A DNA stretch of 36,037 bases. It comes from a virus. Shown in pieces: positions 818 through 23,880 of this stretch (position 1 is its first letter; every line of letters starts with the position of its first letter). The translations under genes and the position numbers were made by a program. Location: IMG/VR virus record IMGVR_UViG_3300045776_000084; one strand, 5' to 3'. The notes under the pieces were generated by a model. That model saw only the letters and a list, made by a program, of their open reading frames with translations, searched no databases and was not told where the DNA came from.

Positions 818-1198
818 TTGGGGTATTTGGAATATCCAACCCTCTATATAGGAGAACTATACGGAGGGTTGGATATGAATACCAGCACCAAACAGTGGTT
901 AATGAGTGTATTTAGTGAAGACAATGCAAACCCCCCGCAGGGGTCGAGCAGTCGTGCCCTTAGCTTTATTCTAAGCATAGGGAGTTTGGCGATTATTACT
1001 GTACTGTTTGCTCGATTACCTTACCTCCCGGCAGATAAGCTGGCAGCCTTCCTCCCCAGTCTCCCCTACATCATAGGGGGGCTCACTGCTTTCTCAATTT
1101 CACCCTACACGGTCAATAAAGTGTCGGGAATTTGGGATAAAAGTAGTAATTCCCCTACGACCCCACCAGTACCTCCGGCTCCTCCAAGCGGCTCCTAA
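818..1198 (+). CDS. Hypothetical membrane protein with Pro/Thr-rich C-terminus
   Basis: Two hydrophobic segments. C-terminal PTTPPVPPAPP tract. Same strand as the upstream genes. Confidence 0.35.
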   Translation: MGYLEYPTLYIGELYGGLDMNTSTKQWLMSVFSEDNANPPQGSSSRALSFILSIGSLAIITVLFARLPYLPADKLAAFLPSLPYIIGGLTAFSISPYTVNKVSGIWDKSSNSPTTPPVPPAPPSGS

Positions 1199-1587: not shown

Positions 1588-2043
1588 TTAGCCCTTCTGT
1601 CCCGGTGTTCCGACAGCGGCGGATGTGGTAGCAGTTGCTGGCGGAGTGGTCGGGTCAGTTAGTTCAGCTTTCAGCTCTGTGAGGCTCGTAGTGGGGTCTT
1701 TTTGTTTTGCTGCGGTTATCATAGCGGCGATGTCCGAGAAGGAAGCGGTGCCCTTGTTGATGGCATATGGTGCGGCAATTAGGCCAATGAGCGCGGTTAA
1801 AACTATTGGAAGGTTTGAAAGATACACACTCACCATAGCCACGTCAGTCAAGTGGGTTACGTGGTAGATAATCCGCTGAACGACCCACATAGTAAAAAAT
1901 GAAAACAAGAACATGAGCACCCGGGTGGATGAGGGTTCCCCGCTGGGCTCACTGATAAGCCCCCGCACGAAAGCTAGGGTTCGAGTTGTCCATCTCGTTA
2001 TGACCATCGAAAAGCCCCCCCTGTTAAGGGGGGCGGTATTCAT
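1588..2043 (-). CDS. Small integral membrane protein (3 predicted TM helices, PT-rich tail). The real start may be M13 at 2007, just after a terminator-like hairpin.
   Basis: Hydrophobic helices. ATGA overlap with the stop of the upstream ClpB-like gene. The GC hairpin 2014-2033 lies inside the first 12 codons. Confidence 0.45.
   Translation of the reverse strand: MNTAPLNRGGFSMVITRWTTRTLAFVRGLISEPSGEPSSTRVLMFLFSFFTMWVVQRIIYHVTHLTDVAMVSVYLSNLPIVLTALIGLIAAPYAINKGTASFSDIAAMITAAKQKDPTTSLTELKAELTDPTTPPATATTSAAVGTPGQKG
2014..2033 (-). terminator. GC-rich stem-loop (GCCCCCC-TTAACA-GGGGGGC) followed by TTTT on the minus strand, immediately after the ClpB-like stop
   Basis: Perfect 7-bp G/C stem and 6-nt loop seen directly. 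On the minus strand a T-run follows (plus 2010-2013 AAAA). Confidence 0.35.
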
Positions 2044-4568
2044 TTTTTACTCTCGGTGGGCTTCGGTTTTGGCTTCGTCACGGGGCGCTGGCGTCCCGTG
2101 TAGGAGACGGGCGGCTCATGGTTCAGTCGATCAATTTCACGCTCGGTCAAGCCCTCCTGCAATCGCTTCAGCAAGTTGTTGAGCCCGTGGACATCATCTA
2201 ATTTATTCACTTCATTATAAAGTTCGTTGGCCTTCTTCAGACGGGTCTTCGCTTCGGTGGGGCTGGTGGTCTGAAGCTTCTCCGCCATGACGGGAGCGAG
2301 CGCACCTTGGGTGAGGAGGGTAAACGTCAAGGTACCCGTCTTGTCTATGTCAATTGCAATCGTGTCACCAAGGGTGATTTGCCCACTAGATACAAGATTG
2401 GACAAGGGGGATACCAGCATCCTCTCAATGGTGCGTTTCAGGTGACGAGCCCCATACTTGGGGTCGATCCCCTCTTTTAGGAGCACAGTCTTTACCGCAT
2501 CAGAACAGGTAAAGACGAACTGGGAATTACCCACGCAACTGAGAATCCGCCGCTGCACGATACCCAACTCAATGTCAAGTATCTCCTTCAGGTGCTCCTC
2601 GCGGAGTGTTTTGAAGACCACAACCTTGTCGAGTCGGTTCATGAATTCAGGAGAGAATTTACGCTTCGCCGCCCCCTCTGCTACCCTCTCAATCTTTGTG
2701 TCAAACTGGTCATCTATAGAGCTGTCGGGGCTTCTGAACCCCATGCCGCCCTCTGCCAAACCCTGCATTTGGCTGGCTCCAAGGTTCGAGGTCATGACGA
2801 TAAGACAGCGGCTTAGGTCAACCCGGCGAGTGTCTCCAAGGGTAAGTGTGGCCTTGTCCAGAACCCCGAGCAGGAGGTTCCACAGGGAGTCAGAGGCTTT
2901 TTCGATTTCGTCAAAAAGGAGCAAAGTAATCTGGTGTTCGGGAGTATGCCATTGGTTTAACGCTTCTTGCGTCAGGAGGGGGTGAGTCTCACGGTGGCCC
3001 AGATATCCCGGTGGGCTATTCGACACCACCATGTTCTCTACCACATAAGACGTTTTTTCCTCCACAGAAAAATCATACACAAATCCCTCATACTCAACCT
3101 CATCGACGGCTTTTATACGGCTGTACACATAGTCGTCGTCCACATGAGCCATGCGTTGAATTCCTGAATTCCCCGGATTGAAGATGTTTATACTCTTCCC
3201 ACACATTGGAAGGTTTTGTACAAAAGACTGAATCTGCTCTCCCGCCATATACAAGCGGTAACGGGGAACTGTCTTATACCCTCGTTTGTCTGGTTTTGGT
3301 ACTTGGCGTTGCATTTGTGTAACAAACCCCAAATTATGGATTAGCAGCCGCATCTGACTAGCCAAATTTGGTGAAGAGGTAGAGTAATCAAGACGGCGGC
3401 GAACGGTCTTCCCCCCGTCGCCTAGAATTGCCGTATCAAGGAAATTCCACAGCAAATCAGGGCTCAACTGTAAAAACCACACTGGAAGATGCTTATTCAG
3501 TGTGTGGTCACCAAAGAGGTCGGCCATTAGGCGGCTAACAACCCGAGAATGGTAATGGATGCGGGTAGAGTGGCTCTTTCGCTCTCTAACATGAACCGCC
3601 CCACCAATAAATACCCGCCCCAGAATGTCTCGCACTTCCTGAACACATGGTTGTTCTTGGACTTGGCTACCAAAAGTAAAGTTGATGGTTTTACGAGATT
3701 TAGAATTACCTCCCTCGCTTACATAGAAACCCGCCAAACGAGTGAAGTCCTTATCCACCTTGATAAATCGGCGAATCTTAATCAAGTCCCCAACCCCCCC
3801 TTTACTCCACACATAGTCATCGTCAAAGCAGAGTTTGGGCATTACGGAGGCGTATTCAGCCAAATCAAGGGTGACCTCTGAGGGCTCAAGGTGTTGTCGA
3901 GGGTAGACGACCACATCCCCCTTTCTCAACTCTCCCGCAGGGACATACTGTAAATTTTCAGATTGGTATAAATTACTCAGGTCTCTTCCAGTTCTGGTGC
4001 TCGCTCGTCTCCCTACAAACGGTTGTTTAATCGCCCACACTTTGTGTGGTGAGGTACACACCACCGGGACATTACTGTTACCCACCATCAATCGGGTTAG
4101 TACACCTTTGTACTTATACTGGTGCAGAAAGGTGACAAGATGGGGCTCCCCGTTTTTAGTGATAACCCAGTCTCCCACCTTCACCTGTTCGATTGGTTTT
4201 GTAGTCCCGTCAGACAGGAGAACCCCAGTTCCCGGAATAAAACAGCCAACTAGTTTGGCAATTTCGTGTGAGTGCTGGAACTCAGCACAGTCGATTTTGA
4301 TGAGAGCTTGGGGGTTGTTGAATAGAGTCTCAGCGATAGCTTCAACGACCTTGGTTTTCCCGGTTCCGCTGGGTCCGAGAAACAGCAGGTTGCCGATGGG
4401 GCGTCCCGGTGCATTCAACCCGGCTAAAAACATCTGATAAATTTCGCTGACTTTCTGGATAGCGGCATCCTGACCAACTACTTTACTACGAAGAGTCTTC
4501 TCAAACTCTAAGGAGGCTTTACTCTTGCGGTTAGGGTCTAGCTGTTTAACGGCTCCCGTTGTTGACAT
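2040..4568 (-). CDS. ClpA/ClpB D2-type single-AAA+ ATPase precursor containing an intein (842 aa precursor, about 433 aa after splicing)
   Basis: Walker A GPSGTGKT. After the intein: SPPGYLGH, Walker B LLLFDEIEKA, sensor VMTSNLG, and a ClpB C-terminal domain motif YGARHLKRTIE. The extein junction KLVG|SPPGY matches ClpB RLVG-APPGYVGY. Confidence 0.8.
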   Translation of the reverse strand: MSTTGAVKQLDPNRKSKASLEFEKTLRSKVVGQDAAIQKVSEIYQMFLAGLNAPGRPIGNLLFLGPSGTGKTKVVEAIAETLFNNPQALIKIDCAEFQHSHEIAKLVGCFIPGTGVLLSDGTTKPIEQVKVGDWVITKNGEPHLVTFLHQYKYKGVLTRLMVGNSNVPVVCTSPHKVWAIKQPFVGRRASTRTGRDLSNLYQSENLQYVPAGELRKGDVVVYPRQHLEPSEVTLDLAEYASVMPKLCFDDDYVWSKGGVGDLIKIRRFIKVDKDFTRLAGFYVSEGGNSKSRKTINFTFGSQVQEQPCVQEVRDILGRVFIGGAVHVRERKSHSTRIHYHSRVVSRLMADLFGDHTLNKHLPVWFLQLSPDLLWNFLDTAILGDGGKTVRRRLDYSTSSPNLASQMRLLIHNLGFVTQMQRQVPKPDKRGYKTVPRYRLYMAGEQIQSFVQNLPMCGKSINIFNPGNSGIQRMAHVDDDYVYSRIKAVDEVEYEGFVYDFSVEEKTSYVVENMVVSNSPPGYLGHRETHPLLTQEALNQWHTPEHQITLLLFDEIEKASDSLWNLLLGVLDKATLTLGDTRRVDLSRCLIVMTSNLGASQMQGLAEGGMGFRSPDSSIDDQFDTKIERVAEGAAKRKFSPEFMNRLDKVVVFKTLREEHLKEILDIELGIVQRRILSCVGNSQFVFTCSDAVKTVLLKEGIDPKYGARHLKRTIERMLVSPLSNLVSSGQITLGDTIAIDIDKTGTLTFTLLTQGALAPVMAEKLQTTSPTEAKTRLKKANELYNEVNKLDDVHGLNNLLKRLQEGLTEREIDRLNHEPPVSYTGRQRPVTKPKPKPTESKK
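3018..4244 (-). mobile_element. Intein (409 aa) with LAGLIDADG homing endonuclease, inserted between LVG and SPPGY of the AAA+ ATPase
   Basis: Begins CFIPGTGVLLSDG (block A). Block B TSPHKVW. Two LAGLIDADG-like motifs (LAGFYVSEGG, ILGDGGK). Block F VYDFSVEE. Ends VVSN followed by a +1 Ser. Confidence 0.7.
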
Positions 4569-6248: not shown

Positions 6249-6665
6249 ATGAGGTGTGCAATGTTAAACAAAGGATATGTGTACGTCATCGGAAACCGGG
6301 AGCAGGGGCTGTATAAAATAGGGTCCTCCCGCATTGACCCCCTCTATCGACTAGAACAAATTCAGCCCCACTGTCCATTTGAACTGGAGATGATTGAATT
6401 CTCCCTCGTCAAAAATGCCAAAAGAATCGAACAACGGTTACATGAGTTCTTTGAGTATGATAGGTTACGAATCAACAGTAAATTCACCGATTGGTTTAAA
6501 TTAACTGCTGATAAGGTTAAGAAAATCGGAGCGGGCATACCCAAGGATGAGGTCATAGATGACCCCACCCTCCAGTTAAAAGCAGAGCCAACATCCACCC
6601 CACCTGAGCCTTATTGTAAAGCCTCTGAGTTTCAAGAAGGCTCAGGTCTACTCATTTCAACATAA
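6249..6665 (+). CDS. GIY-YIG superfamily / T5orf172 (MUG113-like) domain protein
   Basis: KGYVYVIGN...LYKIGSS...RLEQI motif near the N-terminus, typical of the T5orf172/GIY-YIG family. The likely real start is MLNKGY at 6261. Confidence 0.5.
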   Translation: MRCAMLNKGYVYVIGNREQGLYKIGSSRIDPLYRLEQIQPHCPFELEMIEFSLVKNAKRIEQRLHEFFEYDRLRINSKFTDWFKLTADKVKKIGAGIPKDEVIDDPTLQLKAEPTSTPPEPYCKASEFQEGSGLLIST

Positions 6666-7317
6666 GGCTATCTATAGTTCGAGTGAGGTTCTCTTTAGCT
6701 TGAGCAGTAAAGGCTGCTGCGAACTCAGTGGTAAAATATAAAGGGTCACGTTCGAGGAACCTGTTGAGGATGGCGGCTCTACCTTTACGGAATGCTTCTT
6801 CCGGTACAAAGGGCTTATACTCCAGCCAGATGTTGTTGCCGTTCCTTTCGAATACCTCCCAAGTTGATCCAAGGCTGGCCAAGTCCATGTCGGTGATGAC
6901 ACTCCCGGCTCCCGTGGTGTAGGTGGTAAGCATAATTTCGGCCATGGCTTCCTCAGCTTGGTTGTAGGTTACCCCCAGTGTCTGGGAGTCTCTCAGAAGC
7001 AGGGCAGCAGACCGTTCTTCGTTGTTCTGAGCCTTCGGGTCGTATTCCGCGTCATGGTAAGCCCATGCGAAGAACTCCACTGCGGTTAGTGATTTGGTGC
7101 ATAGCTCCTCATGGATTTCCAGACCATTAAAAATGTGGCCGAGGTCATGGTAGCGCCGATGGGGCTCGTTGTACTTCCGCACCAGCTTGAACAAAACATC
7201 CTGAATCCCGGCTTTGTCCTTGCCGGGTGCCCGGTCAACAAATTCTTGAAGGAAGTTCATACCTGTATGATACCAAAATACGAAAGGCGAGTCTAGAGCC
7301 GTCGCCAAATTTACCAA
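6652..7317 (-). CDS. Hypothetical protein, possibly an HD-superfamily phosphohydrolase (RRYHDLGHI motif)
   Basis: H-R-R-Y-H-D-L-G-H near the N-terminus, plus later His/Asp residues. The family assignment is from memory only. An alternative start is MNFLQEF at 7260. Confidence 0.4.
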   Translation of the reverse strand: MVNLATALDSPFVFWYHTGMNFLQEFVDRAPGKDKAGIQDVLFKLVRKYNEPHRRYHDLGHIFNGLEIHEELCTKSLTAVEFFAWAYHDAEYDPKAQNNEERSAALLLRDSQTLGVTYNQAEEAMAEIMLTTYTTGAGSVITDMDLASLGSTWEVFERNGNNIWLEYKPFVPEEAFRKGRAAILNRFLERDPLYFTTEFAAAFTAQAKENLTRTIDSLMLK

Positions 7318-7480
7318 ATCTCACATAACAATGACGACTACCGTCCTCTATTTTAGGGCGAGGTTTAATCGCGACTTTGGGACTGTAGAGGAAGTATGGC
7401 CATTACACAAATAAATTGGCGGGGATCGTGGGACAGCACTGACTTTTGTAAAACCAGAAGTGCCCAAACCAAGATTTTCT

Positions 7481-7888
7481 TTACAGGTAGGACGGCGCAA
7501 ATATGTATAAGGCAAGCCAATGCACCACGGATGCACGCTTTCGCCAATCCACAAGGTTTCCTTGCTTTGATGTCTCCACCAAGATTGTGGCTTGCCTATC
7601 TTGTACAGAAGTCTTTTGGAGCGGAGCCCCTTCTGCCGAGTTTCCTACACACAAAGTTCTCGACGGTGCCGCTGTCATTGTGGCGAAAGCTATCCAGTGA
7701 TAGTATTCTCTGACTACAGCTCCAGATTCTTTTGCCTCTATTCCGGTTTCTACCGAACCATACTTGGCCATATCGACCCACTCGCCAGTTTTGTCGTCGA
7801 AGATTTCGAGTTTAGCTATTTCGAGTTTAGCCCCCCAAATGAGTTGTACACGGAGATATTCTTCCGGCCAACGACGGCTTCCCCGCAA
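7481..7888 (-). CDS. Hypothetical protein. Its 5' region overlaps the upstream Zn-finger ORF by about 70 nt across a tandem 15-bp duplication and a G6 run.
   Basis: ORF with protein-like composition. The start is uncertain (MAKYGS at 7771 is an alternative). Confidence 0.35.
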   Translation of the reverse strand: MRGSRRWPEEYLRVQLIWGAKLEIAKLEIFDDKTGEWVDMAKYGSVETGIEAKESGAVVREYYHWIAFATMTAAPSRTLCVGNSAEGAPLQKTSVQDRQATILVETSKQGNLVDWRKRASVVHWLALYIFAPSYL

Positions 7889-10334: not shown

Positions 10335-11348
10335 TTATTTTCTTAAGCCGTTGTACCTAACTACTTGTTCTTTCCAGTGAGTTGATGTCTGAACATGGCC
10401 TTTACGCACCCATTTCCCCACTAAACGTCTAAAATCCCCAAATTGAAAAGCAGCGGCAGGTCGGATAACGAACCCCTCTTGGCGGTTTAAGTCAAGCGAG
10501 GCACTGAGCTGGCTCACGAGGCTATCTGACCACAACCCCCTGTATAAAACCGGGACTACTGGAAGATGGAGCAGGGTCGCATACTCAACGGTATCATCCC
10601 ATGACAGGCATTTCAAATTCTCCCAGATGCCGAAGATGTAGAAGTACCCCTCTAGGTCGGTGTACTCGATGGAGTGTACGGCTGTTACGTTTTCTCCACA
10701 CAAGCGAAGCCCCTCCGGGATATCGTGGGCAATTTCAGCCCAGATTCGTTTTATGAACGTGCGGGAGGGGTGAGGTTCGTAATCAAGAGACCGGGCGTGC
10801 ATATAGTCGTGGTACAAAGTTGTACACTCGCCGTCTAGTTTCTCAGTAGCGATAACCTCCATGCCCTGCCACTGGTCAGTGGAGGCATGGATTTTGTCAT
10901 CGTCAGACGCACCGGGGGAGGTAGCGTAGTGAAATGTACGAGGATATTTTACCCGATTGGTGAATAGATGAAGGAGGGGTGCAAGCATTTTCTGCACTGG
11001 TTCTTCATCAAAAAGTTCTCCACGGAGGCGTAGTCCGCTTGGAAGAATGACGTTGCCCCACTTGTCGTAGCGGTCTTCGGGGCTAAGATGATCTGGTAGC
11101 CGAGGGGTTCCGACGTGAATAGCCGCCCGGATATCGTCGGCTGAGATAGTCGTGTTCTCCGCTCCCACATGACAGTCTGCACAGAGCGTGGCTCCGTTGT
11201 CGAGGTAGTATCCGCCATCGGTGAATAGTTTCCTTTCGATGATGTGGTGGGCAGCGTCTCCCGGCTGGCCGCAGATGACACACTTGTGCCCGTCTCTGGC
11301 GAAGACCCCTTCGCGGAACTCATTACGGGTTAGTAGTGTCGTTTCCAT
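10335..11348 (-). CDS. Fusion of an HNH-type nuclease domain (N-terminal) and an ATP-dependent RNA-ligase-like nucleotidyltransferase (Rnl2/pfam09414-like)
   Basis: N-terminal C-x2-C...HH...N...C-x2-CH (CVICGQPGDAAHHII...NGATLCADCH). Ligase motif I EKLDGE (KxDG without the +5 Arg typical of DNA ligases). Motif III FGIWE. Motif IV EGFVIRP. Motif V GKWVRKGH. Start taken at the ATG METTLL. The track start is a GTG. Confidence 0.55.
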   Translation of the reverse strand: METTLLTRNEFREGVFARDGHKCVICGQPGDAAHHIIERKLFTDGGYYLDNGATLCADCHVGAENTTISADDIRAAIHVGTPRLPDHLSPEDRYDKWGNVILPSGLRLRGELFDEEPVQKMLAPLLHLFTNRVKYPRTFHYATSPGASDDDKIHASTDQWQGMEVIATEKLDGECTTLYHDYMHARSLDYEPHPSRTFIKRIWAEIAHDIPEGLRLCGENVTAVHSIEYTDLEGYFYIFGIWENLKCLSWDDTVEYATLLHLPVVPVLYRGLWSDSLVSQLSASLDLNRQEGFVIRPAAAFQFGDFRRLVGKWVRKGHVQTSTHWKEQVVRYNGLRK

Positions 11349-11485
11349 AGTTTTACCGAATAGTCGGGCAGTAGTCGTGGATGAAAGCACCGCACCTTCG
11401 ACAAAGGATGACTGTGTCCACGGGGTTGTAGGGCTCGTGGGGCTTCCGCCAGAACGTTCTCCAGCATCTCTTGATTATAACCACT

Positions 11486-13260: not shown

Positions 13261-14046
13261 CTATAGTTGGTCTTTATGCTTAACAAGTTGATTCAACAAA
13301 CAGTCATCGGCTCTTTTGTCGTTTCGTTTACGAAGAAGCACTGGCTGTACAATATGATTGCTTCGCGTGGCGTAAAGATAGCGGACTTCAACTACATCCA
13401 ACTTATTCAATTGGAACTTTCCACGAAGAGACACCCCCGAGACCTCATATAGCCGTCCCCGTTCGTCGTAGACACCAATGCGAACGCTGTTGTGGCCTTC
13501 CGGGCTGGGTCCGATAACCACAGCATCTAAAGTGCGAGTGAACTTCAGCTTGAAGTGATTCCCAGAACGACCCTCACTGTAGGACTTAGCCATGTTTTTG
13601 ATGACCACGCCCTCGGAATGGGACTCCAACAGGGCAATGACCAGCTTAATTTTGGCGGTATCGTCGCGGGTGGTCTTAACCGGGATGATGCGAGGGCTGA
13701 ATCCGTCGAACTCAGCATGATAGCGGGATTCGCGGTACTCGTAGGCATCGTGGATGATGGTCTCATCACCTAAAATTAGGGAATCGAACACGTGGATGGT
13801 GCTCTTTACTAGCTCCACGTCGATGACGAATTGCTCAAGAGGGTGGGAACGAAGGGCGTTGATGAGAACCACGGGGAGGGGTTTTCCACTCTCGCCTTCC
13901 CGGTTCCAGTTACGGATGGTTTTCCCCTGCTTGCAAATCGTCCGCCGTTCTCCGTTGAACTTCTCCTGAAATCCATAGTTGGAGTTATGGATGAACCGCT
14001 CCAACTGCTCTTGCGTGATTTCAGTGAGTAGTTCAGACTTAATCAT
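13261..14046 (-). CDS. Compact ATP-dependent nucleic-acid (probably DNA) ligase of the nucleotidyltransferase superfamily, with a variant motif I K-F-N-G-E-R
   Basis: Motif I EKFNGER. Motif III VIDVELV. Motif IV EGVVIKN. Motif V HFKLKF. A partial OB-like C-terminus. GAGG RBS. Confidence 0.6.
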   Translation of the reverse strand: MIKSELLTEITQEQLERFIHNSNYGFQEKFNGERRTICKQGKTIRNWNREGESGKPLPVVLINALRSHPLEQFVIDVELVKSTIHVFDSLILGDETIIHDAYEYRESRYHAEFDGFSPRIIPVKTTRDDTAKIKLVIALLESHSEGVVIKNMAKSYSEGRSGNHFKLKFTRTLDAVVIGPSPEGHNSVRIGVYDERGRLYEVSGVSLRGKFQLNKLDVVEVRYLYATRSNHIVQPVLLRKRNDKRADDCLLNQLVKHKDQL

Positions 14047-14294: not shown

Positions 14295-17200
14295 ATGATG
14301 CAAATTGAAAACTGGCGTGGCCTGTGGAACCTATTGACAACCTATGCGGTCAACGACATCGCGTATTATGAGGGCTCATCCTACTTCGCTTTGGACATCA
14401 ACACCGGGAAAGCCCCAATCCTTGCAAACATAGGGGTTTACTGGTCTCCAGTGGCCTTAGCCGGGGAGCAGGGAATTCAGGGTCAGCAGGGCGTTATAGG
14501 CCCCACTGGAATTCAAGGTGTACCCGGAATTCAAGGGCCAGCAGGGAACCCCGGAATTCAGGGAATTCAAGGAAATCAAGGTGACCGCGGGCCTGAGGGT
14601 TTGCCCGGAATTAAGGGCGATACCGGGAGTCAGGGGATTCAGGGAGTCAAGGGCGACACCGGAATTCAAGGTGTACCCGGGGTTCAGGGAGTCAAGGGCG
14701 ATATTGGCGACACCGGCCAAGGCTTAGTTTGGCGGAACACTTGGGAGGCGATTGCCACCTACAACACCTATGACTGTGTCCCCTATGAGGGAGCATCATA
14801 TATCTGCCTTGCCCCCAACGTCCTGAATGTGTCCCCAGATTCGGATGATTCAAAGTGGGGCTTACTAGCGCAGGGCGGCGGTACAATTGATTGGTCGGAG
14901 ATTAAAGATGTTCCTACCACGGTAGCCGGGTACGGCATCACCGACCTATCCCCCGTGGCAACGTCGGGCTCGTACAACGACCTCAACAACAAGCCAACCT
15001 TAAACTTCGACCCGGCTGGGTCAGCAAGTACGGTACAAGGGAGTCTTACAGCGGAGGTAACAAGAGCGGAGGGGGTTGAGGCTTTGAAGGCTAACACTTC
15101 TAGCCTTGCTCCAGTTGCCTTCTCAGGGGATTACGCTGACCTGAGTGGAACACCCACCCTCGGTACCGCCGCCACTCAGAACAGCTCCGCGTTCGACCCG
15201 GCTGGTACGGCCTCTACAGTTCAAACCAACCTCACCTCGGAAACTTCGCGTGCTCTCGCGGCGGAGGGTCTGCTCGTCCCGAAGACCACAACTATCAATG
15301 GCAAAGCCCTCTCCAGCAACGTGACCTTGGCGATAACTGACTTTGGGGGAACGCTCCCGCACGCTCAATTGCCGACTTTGCTCAGCACCGACATTCCAAG
15401 CATCCCCGAATCACAGGTCACCAACCTCGTCAACGACTTGGCCGCAACCGAAAAGACTGCGAACAAGGGCGCGGTGAACGGCTATGCTGGCTTAGACGCT
15501 AACGGGCAGCTCTATACTTCACAGCTCCCAGCACTTGCTATTGTGAGCACCTCTGTGGTCTCCTCTCAGACTGCGATGCTGGCACTCACAGCTCAGCAAG
15601 GTGACGTAGCTATTCGTGAGGACATCAACGAAACGTTCATCCTTGCTGCGTCTGACCCCACCCTCCTCGCCAACTGGAAGCAAATTCTCACCCCGGCATC
15701 CCCGGTACAGAGTGTCAACGGACAGACAGGAATTGTGAACCTCGCCATCCCGGCAGCTCAGGTCAATAGTGACTGGGCATCGGGGAGCGGTGTAACTCAA
15801 ATTCTCAACAAGCCCACCCTCGGCACCGCCGCAGCTCAGAATTCATCTGCCTTTGATTCCGCTGGCTCTGCTGCGACAGTGCAGACCAACCTCACCTCGG
15901 AAGTCTCTCGTGCAACCACTGCGGAAGGTCTGCTGGTTCCAAAAACAACCACGGTAAATGGTCACGCCCTATCCGCTAATGTCACGGTCTCTGCTTCTGA
16001 TCTTACAACGGGAACCCTGCCTGTTGGTCAACTTCCAACAATCCCATATAGCCAACTTTCGGGCACGCCAACGATTCCTTCTGTACCTCTCACGACCATT
16101 CAAAATAATGGTGTCACGGTCACCCCCGTCTCAGGAACGGTCAATCTCATACCCGGCTCGAACGTCACCTTGACCACCTCAGGTGACTCTATCACCGTTG
16201 CCTCCACGACAACATTCTCCGCCCTGACGGGTTCCACCAACACCACAGCCGCCATGGTGGTGGGTACAGGGTCGTCTATCGCTGCAACTGGTACTGGTAC
16301 CATCACTGCTACCTCCTGCCCAACGGAGACCACCCGCGCTGAGGCTGCTGAAGCTCTCCTGCTACCTATCACCACGGCAGCCAGCACCTATGCTACTCAG
16401 ACCAACCTGACGGCTGAAGTTACTCGTGCAGAGGCGGCTGAGGCACTGCTTGTGGCCAAGACCACAACAATTGCTGGCCACCCACTGTCTGGCAACGTGA
16501 CTGTTGCGTATACTGATCTAACCGGCCTTCCGACTCTTGGAACTGCCGCATCACACGCATCTACAGACTTTGATTCTAGCGGTGCCGCAGCGTCGGTTCA
16601 GACAACTGTAAGCGCATCCATCTCTGCCGAGACAGCGCGGGCTGAAGCTGCCGAAGCTGTCCTTACCACAGCCGTCGCTGGTAAGCAATCTGCCCTCGGG
16701 TACACACCAGAGAATTTGGCCAACAAGGGTGTAGCAAGTGGTTATCCAACCCTTGATAGCACAGCGCACATCCCGATCAATCAACTTCCTGCCTCTGTGC
16801 AGGGAGCAATGTCATACGTTGGTGTGTGGAATGCAGCCACCAACACTCCGGCAATTAGTAGTGGAGTAGGAACTAAGGGTTTCTTCTACAAGGTCAGTGT
16901 TGCTGGCTCGACAACAGTTGATGGCAACTCTATTTGGCACGTTGGCGACATGCTCATCTTTGATGGAGCTGCGTGGGATAAGATTGACAACTATGAAGCT
17001 GTAACATCTGTTGTGGGGCGCACTGGTGCAATCACTCTTAGTGAGGCAGACATCACTGGGTTGGTTGCTGACCTTGGCACACTCACTGCGGGCATCGCCG
17101 GAGAAGTAACCCGTGCGGAAGGCATTGAGGCCACGCTGGCCGCAAACCTCGCAGCGGAAGTTACAAGGGCTGAAGGTGTAGAGAGCACACTTGCCCCGAT

Positions 17201-17984
17201 AGCAGGGCCACTGTTTAATGGCCCTGTTGGTATTGATGTAGCTACTCCAGATCAAGCTCTTACTCTTGCCACTGGTGATGCTGTTGCGTGGATGCAACCG
17301 CAGAGATTTGGGGGTGGCGGTGGTACACTAGAAGGCGGAGATACATCCGATACGGGGCTTTCCAGAACGGATGTTGGAGTTGTGGCGGTTGGTAACGGTC
17401 AACCCGGCGATACTTCTGGGTCGTTGCAGTGTGCTGTAATCCTTGCTGGTAACCTTGCCAACTCGGCAACTACTGACACTACAAACGCAGCAAATATCAC
17501 AAGCGGTGTGCTGCCTCTCGCGCAAGTCCCGGCAATCCCCGTTAGCAAGACCACTGGGTTTGCCACTGTCGCCACAACTGGCACATATAGTAGCCTCACA
17601 GGTCTTCCGGCCATCCCGGTTGTAGGAACTGTCACCCCGGTTGTAGATGGAGCCGCCTCAATAGGCAGCACTGGTAAATGGGCAGACGCTGGACACATTC
17701 ACCCAACTGACACCAGCCGTGTGGCCACCAGTACCACGGTCAATGGTCACACGCTAAGCAGCAATGTGGTTGTTTCCGCTTCCGACCTCACAACTGGCAC
17801 GCTGCCCGTTGCCCAGCTCCCCACGATTCCATACAGCCAACTTTCGGGCTCCCCCACTTTGGGTAACGCCGCACCTTTGAATGTGGGAACCACAAGCGGA
17901 ACTGTGGCGGCTGGGGACGACCCTCGGCTTAACGCTGCGGTATCCACCGCGAGAGCTGTAGCTTTCGCCATTGCCTTCGGTTAA
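14295..17984 (+). CDS. Tail fibre protein (1229 aa) with a collagen-like Gly-X-Y region and repeated fibre modules
   Basis: AAGGGGA RBS. About 29 consecutive G-X-Y triplets (aa 55-145). Repeated modules SGSYNDLNNKPTL, LGTAAAQNSSAFD..TVQTNLTSE..RA..AEGLLVPKTTT.NG.ALS.NVT, and TRAEAAEALL. A C-terminal module shared with the 860-aa fibre. Confidence 0.75.
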   Translation: MMQIENWRGLWNLLTTYAVNDIAYYEGSSYFALDINTGKAPILANIGVYWSPVALAGEQGIQGQQGVIGPTGIQGVPGIQGPAGNPGIQGIQGNQGDRGPEGLPGIKGDTGSQGIQGVKGDTGIQGVPGVQGVKGDIGDTGQGLVWRNTWEAIATYNTYDCVPYEGASYICLAPNVLNVSPDSDDSKWGLLAQGGGTIDWSEIKDVPTTVAGYGITDLSPVATSGSYNDLNNKPTLNFDPAGSASTVQGSLTAEVTRAEGVEALKANTSSLAPVAFSGDYADLSGTPTLGTAATQNSSAFDPAGTASTVQTNLTSETSRALAAEGLLVPKTTTINGKALSSNVTLAITDFGGTLPHAQLPTLLSTDIPSIPESQVTNLVNDLAATEKTANKGAVNGYAGLDANGQLYTSQLPALAIVSTSVVSSQTAMLALTAQQGDVAIREDINETFILAASDPTLLANWKQILTPASPVQSVNGQTGIVNLAIPAAQVNSDWASGSGVTQILNKPTLGTAAAQNSSAFDSAGSAATVQTNLTSEVSRATTAEGLLVPKTTTVNGHALSANVTVSASDLTTGTLPVGQLPTIPYSQLSGTPTIPSVPLTTIQNNGVTVTPVSGTVNLIPGSNVTLTTSGDSITVASTTTFSALTGSTNTTAAMVVGTGSSIAATGTGTITATSCPTETTRAEAAEALLLPITTAASTYATQTNLTAEVTRAEAAEALLVAKTTTIAGHPLSGNVTVAYTDLTGLPTLGTAASHASTDFDSSGAAASVQTTVSASISAETARAEAAEAVLTTAVAGKQSALGYTPENLANKGVASGYPTLDSTAHIPINQLPASVQGAMSYVGVWNAATNTPAISSGVGTKGFFYKVSVAGSTTVDGNSIWHVGDMLIFDGAAWDKIDNYEAVTSVVGRTGAITLSEADITGLVADLGTLTAGIAGEVTRAEGIEATLAANLAAEVTRAEGVESTLAPIAGPLFNGPVGIDVATPDQALTLATGDAVAWMQPQRFGGGGGTLEGGDTSDTGLSRTDVGVVAVGNGQPGDTSGSLQCAVILAGNLANSATTDTTNAANITSGVLPLAQVPAIPVSKTTGFATVATTGTYSSLTGLPAIPVVGTVTPVVDGAASIGSTGKWADAGHIHPTDTSRVATSTTVNGHTLSSNVVVSASDLTTGTLPVAQLPTIPYSQLSGSPTLGNAAPLNVGTTSGTVAAGDDPRLNAAVSTARAVAFAIAFG
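14457..14720 (+). repeat. Collagen-like triplet-repeat coding tract (GIQG/GVKGDTG repeats) inside the tail-fibre gene
   Basis: Period-9/18 nt repetition (GGAATTCAAGG / GGAATTCAGGG variants) encoding Gly-X-Y. It produces a spurious antisense ORF 14457-14720. Confidence 0.7.
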
Positions 17985-20770: not shown

Positions 20771-21298
20771 TTAGGTGCAGGTGCAGGTGGTGACATACTT
20801 CGCTCCACCAAGCGTGTAGTAGACAGTGATTTGGTAATCGCCCAAATAGGCTGTGTAAGAAGCTAATGAGGCAGTGTTTGTGATGTCAGTGTACACATAT
20901 AACCCGAACCCCGAGTTATTAATGTCGCTGTACAGCCATGTGGTGCCCCACAAGCTGGTGCTTGTGCCCACCGTGTCGGTGCTCTGTGTTGCAGTCCAAC
21001 TCGTTGACCCAGTTGTTAACGTTGCAGGTACGTTAGTCCCCGCCTTCATCAAGTAAACACTTACCTGATTCACCGTGAGATAGGAGATGTTCTGGATTCT
21101 GCGCTGGTAGCTGGCGACGATACCGTTGATGGTTGCACCTGCGGGGATGGCGAACCCGAATCCCGACCCTTGCAGCGTGGCGATAGTCTCATTACCATGG
21201 GTTATGGACTGAGAAGCCAGTGTGGTGTTCGCCACGTTGTTGGGGTTAGTCCAACTCGATCCAATTCCTGATGTTGCTGTAAGCCCTGAGCTTGGCAT
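20771..21298 (-). CDS. Hypothetical structural protein downstream of the 860-aa fibre (tail-fibre accessory/tip?)
   Basis: Thr/Ser/Asn/Gly-rich. Its start codon overlaps the stop region of the fibre gene. Confidence 0.4.
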   Translation of the reverse strand: MPSSGLTATSGIGSSWTNPNNVANTTLASQSITHGNETIATLQGSGFGFAIPAGATINGIVASYQRRIQNISYLTVNQVSVYLMKAGTNVPATLTTGSTSWTATQSTDTVGTSTSLWGTTWLYSDINNSGFGLYVYTDITNTASLASYTAYLGDYQITVYYTLGGAKYVTTCTCT

Positions 21299-23880
21299 TA
21301 GCGCACCCCGTAGAGGCTGAGAGCAGCACCAGCAGCAGTGGTATCAGCAGATGAAGGAGCGGTCATGGTTAGCACATCGCCAACTGCAAAGCTCACAGGT
21401 GAACTGATGGTGAAGGTTCCCGTTGTTCCTGAGGCTGCTACTGCGATGGTTCCGAAGCTCGTGCCATTCTTTAGGAGCGTGAATGTGCAGGAGCCAGTAG
21501 CTGCTGTCATCAACGTGAAGTATTGGTTCGTGGTGCCGGATGCGATGGTGTACGCGATGCTGGCTTTGTTGTAATACAAGACCTGCGATGCAGTGAAGAT
21601 GCCCGTAGCGAAGCAGGACTTTTCAACTGGCTGCTGTCCAACCGTGGTGATGGTTCCTGAAGCCAGAGATAAGCCAGCACCTACTGTGGTGATAGCTGCG
21701 AGGGCGACACCGTTTATCTGGTGTGCCGTTGTGGCGTTGATGGTGGGTGCGGTAACCACACCCGTTGTATTAGCGGTTGGAAGAGCACCCGATGGTGTAA
21801 CCGACCCGGTGTCAGTCCATGTGGTTGTGCTGTTAAGACTGACGGTTGCCATGTACAACTCAGCACCCGTTGTCCTTCCGTACACCTTGTAGCCTGTCGC
21901 ACCCGGAACAGCCGTCCAGTTCACAGTGACCGTTGAGGTTGAGCCAGTGGTTACCTTGCTGGTTTCGGCTGAAGCCAACGAGGTTCCAACACCATCAACC
22001 GCAACCACTCGGTAATAGTACGTTCCTGCCGACAGAGTGCCACCCGTAGTTGCAGTAGTAAATGCCGCATTAACGGGGGTTGAAAGCTGGCTCACCACTA
22101 CCTCATTAACCGTGGCTTGGTTGGCTAGGACATTCCCACTAACATCAGCGTGGCCGCCTGTGCCAGTAACGCAGAGCTGCCCATTAGCGCCGTTTCCTGA
22201 TACACCAGTAGTGTACCCAAGGCTAGGGTTATAGAAGAGAAGGCTGCCAGTTGCGCTGGATACGCCGTATGTACCAACAGTTGCCGAAGCACAATACAAC
22301 GAGCCATCATAAGCACCAGCGGTCTTGCCGATACTAAGTGCGCCAGATGCCCCGGTGTTCTGGCTAAGGTAGGCACTGTACGTTCCCACAACCAAGAGGT
22401 CGGTGAGTTTCAGTGTGCCACTATAGTCAGATGCAGTTCCGTTGCCTATGGCAAGGATACCCGCTGCTGTGCGGGATAGGCCCGTGTCGCTTGCGCCGAC
22501 CTTCAACACACCGGAGATGGTTGGGCCGGAAAGCGGTGCATACGTTGAAGCTGCAACCGTTGTACTCAACCCTCCTAGATTAGTCAGGGCCGTAGATGCC
22601 GAGGCAACATCACTCAGGTTGTTCGTTGTATTCAGAGGGGTATACCCCAACACCGCCTGACGGCTCGTATCCGATGGGTGAATGTGTCCAGCGTCGGCAA
22701 ACTTACCGATGGAACCAATCGTAGCTGTACCATCCATGACCGGGGTTGTGGTAGCCACGACGGGGACGGTAGGGGTACCTGTCACTTGACCATAAGGTAG
22801 TGATAGTACAGAGAGGGTAGTCAGGGTGCTGTTGGTGGTGGCGGTAACATTAGCCGAGGTACCCGTGGTGTTAGCCGCATTGCTTGGAATATCCCCTGAC
22901 AATAATGTTGGGAGTTGAGCATGGGGTAATGTACCCGACACCTGTGCAATAGGTAGTGTGAATGTACCGATGTCACTGAGATCAGTGGTAGCCAACTGTG
23001 CGGCGGTGAATACTCCAGTGGATGAGTTATAAGAGTTAAGACACGTATGCGCCACGGAAGCAAACGTAGTAGCCAACGTGGTCGTGTTGGGTAATGCACT
23101 TACCATGACAGCGGTGATACCGCTGACCGTGCCTGTGAACGTGGGGCTGGCTTTGGGGGCTAGAAGAGCTTCAGCAGCTTCCGCTCTGGTTGTCTCCGTA
23201 CTCGCAGCACCAGCAGCATCAAATGCGCTGGATGGTTGGAAAGCGGCCGACCCCAATCCTGACGTGGCGATAGTGACTGCATCACCGCTCGTGGTCAGGG
23301 CAATATTGCTTCCCGGAACTAAGTTGATGACACCAGAGGCCGGAGTGACCACCACACCATTGTTTTGAATTGTGGTGATGGGTACGCTGGGAATGGTCGG
23401 CGTCCCGCTCAGGTTAGCGTAAGGAATCGTTGGGAGCTGGGCTACTGGGAGTGTGCCAGTTGTTATATCGCTTGCACTGACGGTAACGTTGGCTGAGAGA
23501 GCGTGACCGTTCACAGTGGTGGTCTTTGCGACTAGGAGACCCTCTGCCGTGGTTGCTCTTGTTACTTCTGAGGTGAGATTGGTCTGTACCGTTGCGGCGG
23601 AGCCAGCAGCGTCAAAGGCCGTGATGTTCTGGGCGGCGGCGGTGCCAAGGGTTGGCTTGTTGTTGAGGTCGTTGTACGAGCCCGACGTTGCCACGGTTGC
23701 AAGGCTAGACCCCCCACCGCCACCAACCGAAATGTCGAGTTTACCGTCAGACCCAAGAAGGGGTACCTTCCCGGCATCGGCTGAACCTTGAGAAATGGTG
23801 ACCGCACCCACGAGTCCCTCAGTTAAGGGGCCTTGTGGATTCGGTTGTAGGAGTTTAAGAATTTTGAAGTCGTCGGCCAT
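21298..23880 (-). CDS. Second tail fibre protein (860 aa), paralogous to the 1229-aa fibre
   Basis: GAGGGT RBS. A Gly run GGGGGSS. Modules SGSYNDLNNKPTLGTAAAQN...TVQTNLTSEVTRATTAEGLLVAKTTTVNGHALSANVTVSASDITTGTLPVAQLPTIPY... are about 85% aa-identical to segments of the plus-strand fibre. Confidence 0.7.
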   Translation of the reverse strand: MADDFKILKLLQPNPQGPLTEGLVGAVTISQGSADAGKVPLLGSDGKLDISVGGGGGSSLATVATSGSYNDLNNKPTLGTAAAQNITAFDAAGSAATVQTNLTSEVTRATTAEGLLVAKTTTVNGHALSANVTVSASDITTGTLPVAQLPTIPYANLSGTPTIPSVPITTIQNNGVVVTPASGVINLVPGSNIALTTSGDAVTIATSGLGSAAFQPSSAFDAAGAASTETTRAEAAEALLAPKASPTFTGTVSGITAVMVSALPNTTTLATTFASVAHTCLNSYNSSTGVFTAAQLATTDLSDIGTFTLPIAQVSGTLPHAQLPTLLSGDIPSNAANTTGTSANVTATTNSTLTTLSVLSLPYGQVTGTPTVPVVATTTPVMDGTATIGSIGKFADAGHIHPSDTSRQAVLGYTPLNTTNNLSDVASASTALTNLGGLSTTVAASTYAPLSGPTISGVLKVGASDTGLSRTAAGILAIGNGTASDYSGTLKLTDLLVVGTYSAYLSQNTGASGALSIGKTAGAYDGSLYCASATVGTYGVSSATGSLLFYNPSLGYTTGVSGNGANGQLCVTGTGGHADVSGNVLANQATVNEVVVSQLSTPVNAAFTTATTGGTLSAGTYYYRVVAVDGVGTSLASAETSKVTTGSTSTVTVNWTAVPGATGYKVYGRTTGAELYMATVSLNSTTTWTDTGSVTPSGALPTANTTGVVTAPTINATTAHQINGVALAAITTVGAGLSLASGTITTVGQQPVEKSCFATGIFTASQVLYYNKASIAYTIASGTTNQYFTLMTAATGSCTFTLLKNGTSFGTIAVAASGTTGTFTISSPVSFAVGDVLTMTAPSSADTTAAGAALSLYGVR

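Follow-up and report, generated by a model that had tools for sequence, protein, structure and literature searches.

Evidence for a class 1 intein in the D2 pore-1 loop of a stand-alone Clp-type ATPase encoded by phage DNA

The locus

The gene considered here lies on the minus strand of the IMG/VR virus record IMGVR_UViG_3300045776_000084, which was analysed as an entire contig of 36,037 bp (hereafter the window). It starts with ATG, with GGAG placed 6 nt to the 5' side, and its product of 842 amino acids (aa) can be divided into an N-terminal extein (N-extein) of 108 aa, an insertion of 409 aa and a C-terminal extein (C-extein) of 325 aa, so that the spliced product would comprise 433 aa; the coordinates of these and other features are collected in Table 1. 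The best overall explanation, with a probability that may be put at roughly 0.85, is that this gene for a stand-alone second nucleotide-binding domain (D2) ATPase of the Clp type carries a class 1 intein inside the pore-1 loop of that domain. A preliminary description made from the sequence had already proposed that a phage-like element encodes here a single-AAA+, ClpB-D2-like ATPase interrupted by a LAGLIDADG intein, and this is borne out by family profiles, by the continuity of the extein, by empty alleles, by the predicted fold and by the catalytic residues.

Eight contigs, drawn from at least five samples (JGI 3300029953, 3300029955, 3300029914 and 3300045778; ENA ERZ27249459), encode an identical 842-aa protein, and the five gene copies that were fetched are nucleotide-identical to that in the window; given its recurrence in so many samples, the precursor sequence is no artefact of assembly or of a frameshift. 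The window protein and several of its relatives with an insertion at the same site have been named automatically as "DNA polymerase III delta prime subunit", others being called "ClpA" or "hypothetical". The delta prime label is probably a mis-annotation caused by the interruption of the AAA+ domain.

Evidence that the insertion is an intein

On the unspliced precursor the Pfam family AAA_2 matches only as two broken stretches (98.9 bits), whereas after conceptual splicing it matches as one (profile positions 1-165/166, 118.5 bits), followed in the spliced protein by a match to ClpB_D2-small (61.3 bits). The NCBIfam ClpB model TIGR03346 similarly rises from 232 bits before splicing to 258 bits after it, in a single stretch over model positions 555-851, and alignments of the spliced protein with Thermus thermophilus ClpB (1qvr) and Staphylococcus aureus ClpC (6em9) run without gaps over the junction (E value ~1e-61). 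The two halves thus rejoin into one AAA_2 stretch once the insertion is removed, and the excised piece does match intein profiles, these being the two points on which the preliminary description had made its proposal depend.

Within the excised piece Pfam recognises Hom_end_hint at the N-terminal end, LAGLIDADG_3 in the middle (1.2e-10) and Intein_splicing at the C-terminal end, with Hint matches above cut-offs, and several NCBIfam models of "intein-containing" proteins match it as well, over their intein segments. A sequence search of the PDB with the same piece found PI-PkoII (7e-16) and PI-SceI. An AlphaFold (AF2) model calculated from a 4-sequence alignment (predicted local distance difference test, pLDDT, 66; predicted template-modelling score 0.61; pLDDT 75-92 in the endonuclease core) retrieved the same proteins using Foldseek, namely PI-PkoII (5e-18), Tli VMA (5e-17) and PI-SceI (2e-15), matches to these running from 5e-18 to 1e-11, while the core of the endonuclease also matches the free-standing LAGLIDADG enzyme I-DmoI (target-normalised template-modelling score 0.6-0.7, E value ~1e-5).

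The boundaries first proposed hold at precursor residues 109-517: the insertion opens with CFIPGT directly after KLVG, and closes with VVSN before SPPGYLGH (that is, VVSN/S; here and below a slash marks a splice junction or point of insertion). Blocks A, B, F and G and the two LAGLIDADG motifs, which had also been pointed out beforehand, could all be located with their catalytic residues conserved. As expected for class 1, Cys109 of the precursor stands at intein position 1, T64-x-x-H67 is found in block B, and N409 is followed by Ser+1; Cys1, block B, F:4 and the terminal Asn are the nucleophiles and assisting residues of class 1 splicing (PMC4031507). Block F is VYDFSV (intein residues 389-394) and contains no His. 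For the endonuclease, the double-motif LAGLIDADG architecture is seen in two helices bearing E177 and D276 and, in the model, in a core fold of the form alpha-beta-beta-alpha-beta-beta-alpha.

The insertion site and its empty alleles

Alignment with T. thermophilus ClpB places the junction between G638 and A639 (LIG/APPGYVGY), four residues before the tyrosine of GYVG, and on this alignment the insertion site is the D2 pore-1 loop of the GYVG family (KLVG/SPPGYLGH in the window) and not a sensor motif. Its earlier assignment to the sensor region therefore has to be corrected, as sensor-1 and sensor-2 lie 75 and 189 residues downstream of the junction, respectively. Pore-1 loops of the GYVG family define D2 rings and single-ring unfoldases, and it is their tyrosine that touches the translocating substrate (PMC8666677). 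Inteins are known to prefer functional motifs of ATPase domains (PMC4760082), a bias that the pore-loop site fits and extends.

Alleles without the insertion provide an independent view of the junction (homologues and loci are designated here by handles beginning with P or L). All 120 of the intein-free homologues listed have K-L-x-G-S-P-P-G-Y, with Ser at +1; the intein-free P0001, P0004 and P0061 carry HEIAKLIGSPPGYLGHRETHP straight over the junction, and 13 DNA loci (11 IMG/VR viral contigs and 2 bacterial) encode HSHEIAKL(I/V)G/SPPGYLGHRE unbroken. The corresponding conceptually spliced junction in the window is CACTCACACGAAATTGCCAAACTAGTTGGC/AGCCCACCGGGATATCTGGGCCACCGTGAG. Since the empty alleles read directly through this point, splicing would rebuild the native protein exactly. 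At the DNA level, the window and L006, which belong to the clade of inteins ending in Ser-Asn (S-N), use AGC as the Ser+1 codon (window 3015-3017). L020 and all 13 empty alleles use TCN instead; this two-step codon difference follows the intein subclade.

A family of inteins at the same site

An exhaustive HMMER search with the intein against 1.84 billion representatives gave 4767 matches, and among the 150 highest-ranking cluster representatives 26 or more carry a relative at the same junction. A word-indexed search had returned 3 relatives and suggested that the intein was extremely rare, an idea overturned by the exhaustive search. No match was found when the viral contigs were searched with the intein, and no close relative among 185,579 species genomes (best identity 30 %); those same-site members that were looked up are known from metagenomes only, and none is annotated as an intein.

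Three occupied alleles deserve individual mention: P0121, an N-terminal fragment, has an intein 59 % identical to that of the window; P0122/L006, with its frame open to the contig edge, has one 61 % identical; and L019/L020, on a 140-kb phage-like contig, has one 53 % identical that ends in His-Asn (H-N). Over the same-site inteins more widely (L020, P0125-P0149, P0203 and P0282) identity is 32-61 %, the junction is K-L-x-G/C...N/S-P-P-G-Y, and the catalytic residues are the same, with Cys1, Thr B:7, His B:10, Asp F:4 and Asn G:7 each present in 28 of 28, and the acidic residues of the two LAGLIDADG motifs conserved in 24/26 and 26/26 of those that are full-length. On these sequences they clearly represent one allelic family at a recurrent insertion site, rather than a one-off event. 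Their hosts include stand-alone D2 proteins, D2 proteins with a long N-terminal region, and complete Clp_N-D1-D2 two-ring proteins (P0137, P0143), while P0129, P0141 and P0147 bear a second intein in the P-loop (Walker A) of the D2 domain already interrupted at the pore loop (...GVGK/...HN/T...). Two members, P0282/P0154 and P0201, are mini-inteins without an endonuclease. The next-nearest relatives of the intein reside in DnaE (P0151, P0155, P0156), and a remote one (P0123, 26 % identity), which ends in S-N followed by Cys, interrupts the CX3CX2C motif of a radical-SAM-like protein.

The host ATPase

The host protein had been described as a D2 domain with its C-terminal domain, about 433 aa once spliced and lacking N-domain and D1, and this agrees with its matching TIGR03346 over positions 555-851 only, with 258 bits against a cut-off of 1232. 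Pfam finds neither Clp_N nor AAA_lid_9 in the spliced protein, the N-domain, D1 and M-domain being absent. Membership of ClpB, the Hsp100 disaggregase, was accordingly rejected (there being no N-domain, no D1 and no coiled-coil M-domain), and for none of ClpA, ClpB, ClpK, ClpG and ClpV does the extein come anywhere near the NCBIfam cut-off. What is present is the D2 module of Clp/Hsp100 proteins (HCLR clade), complete with Walker A and B, sensor-1, Arg finger, sensor-2, a GYVG-type pore-1 loop and D2-small. The final ~90 residues of the C-extein are shared only with P0001 among the homologues.

The supposition that a stand-alone D2 Clp ATPase would be uncommon did not survive the searches. The extein belongs to a very large family: the homologue search gave at least 8000 scored candidates, with intein-free, stand-alone D2 proteins of ~385 aa at 65-73 % identity, thousands of them in contigs labelled Terriglobales and some in an ordinary chromosomal setting on contigs as long as 2.4 Mb. 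Intein-free relatives are carried by 11 IMG/VR viral contigs also, and PHROG 4871 ("ATP-dependent protease") matches at 1.6e-84. Because the ATPase is close to Terriglobales proteins, its sequence suggests that the host of the phage may be acidobacterial.

As to function, the sequence G-G-M-G-F occurs in the loop that leads from sensor-1 to the Arg-finger helix, and (M/L/I)GF is found there in 119 of 120 listed homologues. In alignment the MGF falls within 2 residues of the AGF of S. aureus ClpC (671-673), whereas T. thermophilus ClpB has a deletion at this point. The AGF of ClpC docks into hydrophobic pockets of ClpP, and its mutation abolishes ClpP binding (PMC12521514). The mature ATPase could thus be a single-ring unfoldase partnering ClpP (with the architecture of ClpX and a descent like that of the ClpC D2 domain) and not a disaggregase, an assignment that is put forward tentatively and at somewhat less than even odds. 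PADLOC gave only partial matches to the AAA core, PDC-M37B and DolB (residues 15-192), and identification as an anti-phage defence ATPase was rejected in view of there being no full-length match to a PADLOC component.

Splicing and the penultimate serine

The penultimate His (G:6) assists cyclisation of the terminal Asn, and is common, although not universal, in class 1 inteins. Here, as the preliminary description noted, this position is instead Ser408. In the mechanism envisaged, Cys1 would form a thioester, which Ser+1 would attack to give a branched ester; Asn409 would then cyclise without the usual penultimate His, and an O-to-N shift would follow. Splicing of the ~94-kDa precursor would in this way yield the 433-aa ATPase, its GYLG pore loop intact, together with a free intein of ~46 kDa. 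The unspliced precursor presumably lacks activity, because the 409-residue insert lies four positions ahead of the Tyr of the pore loop.

Among 28 same-site inteins, 23 have His in the penultimate position, 4 have Ser and 1 has Lys, and the S-N subclade consists of the window intein, L006, P0125, P0134 and P0154/P0282; the penultimate Ser is a derived trait of the subclade. One member, P0282, is a mini-intein of 182 aa with an S-N ending and no endonuclease, which is found on 45 contigs. Having no endonuclease it cannot spread by homing, and its survival therefore depends on continued production of the host protein, so that retention of S-N in this mini-intein argues for splicing competence. 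There are also precedents, in that phage class 1 inteins often have Gly, Lys or Ser in place of the G:6 His and yet splice to completion (PMC5050341), while KlbA inteins all have Ser at G:6 (PMC4031507). The caution originally expressed, that splicing is not guaranteed, was a fair one, yet the comparative evidence leans towards competence, and the window intein can be considered likely to splice.

Homing and selection

Once freed, the double-motif LAGLIDADG endonuclease would be expected to cut the conserved intein-less site in related co-infecting phages or in bacterial alleles, and repair of the cut allele would copy the intein in. Homing of this kind would explain the patchy occupancy observed, the window being occupied, P0001 (the nearest empty allele, 73 % extein identity) empty and L020 (48 %) occupied. 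A possible target in bacteria is seen in a chromosomal, intein-free homologue, 68-70 % identical and with an identical junction peptide.

All the occupied alleles retain open reading frames, and the endonuclease core is the best conserved and most confidently modelled part of the intein. Sequence comparison shows both intein and extein to be under purifying selection, with dN (nonsynonymous substitutions per site) of 0.28-0.44 for the intein against 0.37-0.54 for the C-extein, although dS, its synonymous counterpart, is saturated, so that dN/dS supplies only rough bounds; the identical contigs L001-L005 carry no population information. Whether the endonuclease is currently active must, from the sequences, be regarded as an even bet. 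The figure is lower than that for splicing because intein and extein have diverged to similar extents and because the family shows loss of the endonuclease.

Competing explanations

It must be remembered that, besides the saturation of dS just mentioned, a number of observations weigh against the interpretation developed above. Splicing and DNA cleavage both rest on inference; the intein model is of moderate quality, with pLDDT below 50 over the last ~50 residues, where blocks F and G lie; and the intein has neither a penultimate His nor a His in block F, F:13 being Ser across the family with no member possessing a substitute His. As the usual helpers of Asn cyclisation are absent, splicing could be slow or dependent on conditions. 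For the role of the ATPase, docking to ClpP rests on one tripeptide in a flexible loop, and neither the window nor the bacterial locus L122 has a clpP gene beside that of the ATPase. As to homing, identities between alleles are similar for intein and extein (53 against 48 %, and 61 against 59 %), and such co-divergence, together with loss of the endonuclease in P0282/P0154 and P0201, is as compatible with long vertical residence as with active homing. How far do these points favour a different explanation? That the insertion is no intein at all, but an in-frame free-standing homing endonuclease or a bacterial intein-like (BIL)/Hint domain, or that it is an intein of class 2 or 3, can hardly be entertained: boundaries that rebuild the native sequence exactly, and N- and C-terminal Hint halves that flank the endonuclease as in PI-SceI and PI-PkoII, speak against it, and a BIL-domain reading was dismissed. 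Ser at G:6 is also a hallmark of class 2 (KlbA) inteins (PMC4031507), but it is the only feature shared with them, and class 2 is excluded because intein position 1 is Cys and not Ala, the +1 residue moreover being Ser and not Cys. Class 3 is likewise excluded because F:4 is Asp (Asp391) and not Cys; G:5 is Val, and there is no Trp(B:12)-Cys(F:4)-Thr(G:5) triplet. A less radical proposal is that the intein, with Ser for the penultimate His, is unable to splice, and that the gene is a disrupted, non-functional ATPase. Some inteins without His at G:6 are indeed poor splicers until the His is restored (cited in PMC5050341), and here there is none in block F either; this is nonetheless very unlikely, given that all the AAA+ motifs of the extein are intact, that the extein is under purifying selection, that S-N has been kept in five diverged alleles including the mini-intein, and that splicing inteins with Ser, Gly or Lys at G:6 are on record (PMC5050341, PMC4031507).

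Between full competence and none lies the idea that splicing is conditional (on redox state, temperature or time) and acts as a switch that delays activation of the phage unfoldase, the change from His to Ser tuning its rate. An insertion in the pore loop should leave the precursor inactive, the S-N subclade is conserved, and in mycobacteriophage inteins the penultimate residue alters precursor accumulation, a modulatory role having been proposed there (PMC5050341). This seems unlikely all the same, as the sequence contains no sensor and no extra active-site Cys pair, the +1 residue is Ser, sister alleles with a canonical H-N ending share the site in similar phage-like contigs, and a location within a functional motif is already explained by the choice of targets by homing endonucleases (PMC4760082). 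Equally speculative, on the same sequences, is the suggestion that the S-N intein might set the rate or conditions under which a ClpP-docking phage unfoldase is activated, or else shuttle between phage and host alleles; if the latter were true, an endonuclease targeting the host homologue would move the intein between phage and Terriglobales-like genomes. A possibility to be taken more seriously, if still somewhat doubtful, is that the intein splices while its endonuclease is dead or dying, so that it is no longer mobile and persists as a fixed passenger, inherited vertically, at a late stage of the homing cycle. The co-divergence and the endonuclease-less members noted above are what this would predict, as is the occurrence of the same allele in 5 samples with zero variation; to be set against it are the intact E177 and D276 in a core that is the best conserved part of the intein, an intein dN that is not above that of the extein, and patchy occupancy even among close phage relatives, P0001 being empty at 73 % extein identity. 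The class 1 intein in the pore-1 loop, probably able to splice, is accordingly preferred.

Other features of the contig

The window encodes RIIA, RIIB, a Ku-like protein, an HNH-RNA ligase fusion, a DNA ligase, collagen-like fibre proteins and a phosphohydrolase, and is phage DNA. A megablast search of window positions 1-25000 against INPHARED phages gave no match, and a tRNA search of the window found none. Immediately downstream of the ATPase gene lies an open reading frame of 151 aa that had no family match in the library scan; because its ATG overlaps the ATPase stop codon, the two are, from the sequence, probably co-translated.

Several of the neighbours listed in Table 1 call for brief comment. 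The putative free-standing endonuclease of the T5orf172/MUG113 type lies 1.7 kb from the intein gene, and on the L020 contig similar small genes (2805-3488 and 7012-7704, identified by eye) flank the intein-bearing ATPase, a phosphohydrolase neighbour being common to both; mobile endonucleases may be particularly frequent in this region. The Ku-like protein and the small DNA ligase could form a phage end-joining pair. The two large fibre-like proteins share long protein modules, and no DNA inverted repeat of at least 60 nt was found between their genes.

Table 1. Positions of the precursor gene, its parts and other features of the window (intein residue numbers count from Cys1).
Feature	Position	Strand	Basis or remark
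Precursor open reading frame, 842 aa + stop, ATG start	2040..4568	-	Open reading frame list
N-extein, aa 1-108	4245..4568	-	Walker A and N-side of pore-1 loop
Walker A, GPSGTGKT, in N-extein	4353-4376	-	
KLVG, last residues of N-extein	4245-4256	-	N-side of pore-1 loop
Predicted class 1 intein with embedded LAGLIDADG homing endonuclease, precursor aa 109-517	3018..4244	-	Profiles, PDB matches, fold
Intein block A, CFIPGTGVLLSDG	4206..4244	-	Cys1 nucleophile; C1 in 28/28 same-site inteins
Intein block B, T64-S-P-H67	4044..4055	-	Thr B:7 and His B:10, each 28/28
LAGLIDADG motif 1, LAGFYVSEGG, intein aa 170-179	3708..3737	-	Acidic residue E177
LAGLIDADG motif 2, FLDTAILGDGG, intein aa 268-278	3411..3443	-	Acidic residue D276
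Intein blocks F and G, VYDFSVEEKTSYVV-ENMVVSN	3018..3080	-	Asp F:4 (D391), Ser408, Asn409
C-extein, aa 518-842	2043..3017	-	First residue Ser+1; AAA_2 remainder and D2-small domain
Pore-1 loop, SPPGYLGH, start of C-extein	2994-3017	-	
Walker B, LLLFDEIEKA	2895-2924	-	
Sensor-1, MTSN, precursor aa 592-595	2784-2795	-	
PhiGF loop, GGMGF	2736-2750	-	
Arg-finger region, PEFMNRLD	2628-2651	-	
Sensor-2, GARHLKR, precursor aa 706-712	2433-2453	-	
Downstream 151-aa open reading frame	1588..2043	-	Membrane-protein-like by eye; ATG overlaps ATPase stop (ATGA)
Open reading frame resembling the 151-aa one	818-1198	+	Hydrophobic stretch and Pro/Thr-rich tail, by eye
Putative free-standing endonuclease	6249-6665	+	T5orf172/MUG113 (GIY-YIG-like)
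HNH endonuclease motif fused N-terminally to RNA ligase	10335-11390	-	phrog_24030, 3.7e-112
Small ATP-dependent DNA ligase	13261-14046	-	
Large fibre-like protein	14295-17984	+	Collagen-like G-x-y repeats; direct repeats 14472-14689
Large fibre-like protein	21298-23880	-	
Major-vault-protein-like, 819 aa	25888-28347	-	MVP_shoulder 3.5e-26 and Vault_3 repeats; no PHROG match
R2K-clade ATP-grasp domain protein	29005-29913	-	R2K_3, 6e-18
Ku-like DNA-end-binding protein	30254-31240	-	Pfam Ku, 1.7e-20
RIIB, adjoining RIIA	31719-32951	-	phrog_609, 2e-56
RIIA	32944-35370	-	phrog_612, 1e-98; CxxC...CxxC DnaJ-like zinc-finger stretch (CKQCHGVG...CPDCDGTG), by eye
200-aa open reading frame at contig end	35427-36029	-	Resembles UvrB C-terminal helicase and UVR region, by eye

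Comparison with known systems

In the full-text literature searched (InBase and the supplementary tables of the large intein survey lying outside this scope) no natural intein of a Clp/Hsp100 ATPase was found, the chloroplast ClpP intein being the only Clp-system intein mentioned, and the Clp D2 pore-loop site may provisionally be taken as undescribed. The window intein would add a well-bounded example in the D2 pore loop of Hsp100/Clp proteins, at a site that recurs in at least 26 clusters and in both single- and two-ring proteins. Because sister alleles ending in H-N occupy the same site, the S-N subclade offers a natural test case for Asn cyclisation without the usual helpers, and an intein that gates a pore loop could serve as a splicing-dependent on-switch for unfoldases.

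The extein shares with the D2 rings of ClpC and ClpA the AAA_2 and D2-small fold, a GYVG-type pore-1 loop and the PhiGF tripeptide (PMC12521514, PMC8666677), while in forming a single ring it resembles ClpX. For the intein, the one parallel within the Clp system mentioned in the papers searched is that of Chlamydomonas eugametos ClpP, whose penultimate residue is also not His (cited in PMC4760082, PMC5050341), but which is chloroplast-encoded, lies at an unrelated site and interrupts the ClpP peptidase rather than a Clp ATPase. Mycobacteriophage inteins such as that of the Bethlehem gp51 recombination directionality factor (RDF) are likewise phage-borne, of class 1 and with Cys1, and have Gly, Lys or Ser at G:6 (PMC5050341); they occupy other hosts and other sites, and splicing has been demonstrated for them, whereas for the window intein it is inferred. 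Most of the metagenomic inteins at the same site differ from it in ending H-N and not S-N. PI-PkoII (Thermococcus kodakarensis Pol intein-2, PDB 2cw7), PI-SceI and Tli VMA show the same split Hint domain around a double-motif LAGLIDADG endonuclease, and PI-PkoII, like the window intein, has no His in the aligned stretch of block F (EDNENFLV against EEKTSYVV). They differ in that their hosts are DNA polymerase and V-ATPase and not a Clp D2 ATPase, in showing only ~15 % identity over the structural alignment, and in having His at the penultimate position where the window intein has Ser. Set beside these systems, the window intein follows the standard pattern, being of class 1, equipped with a LAGLIDADG endonuclease and lodged in a functional motif of a phage ATPase. 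It is an ordinary member of its family, one that leaves current understanding in place.

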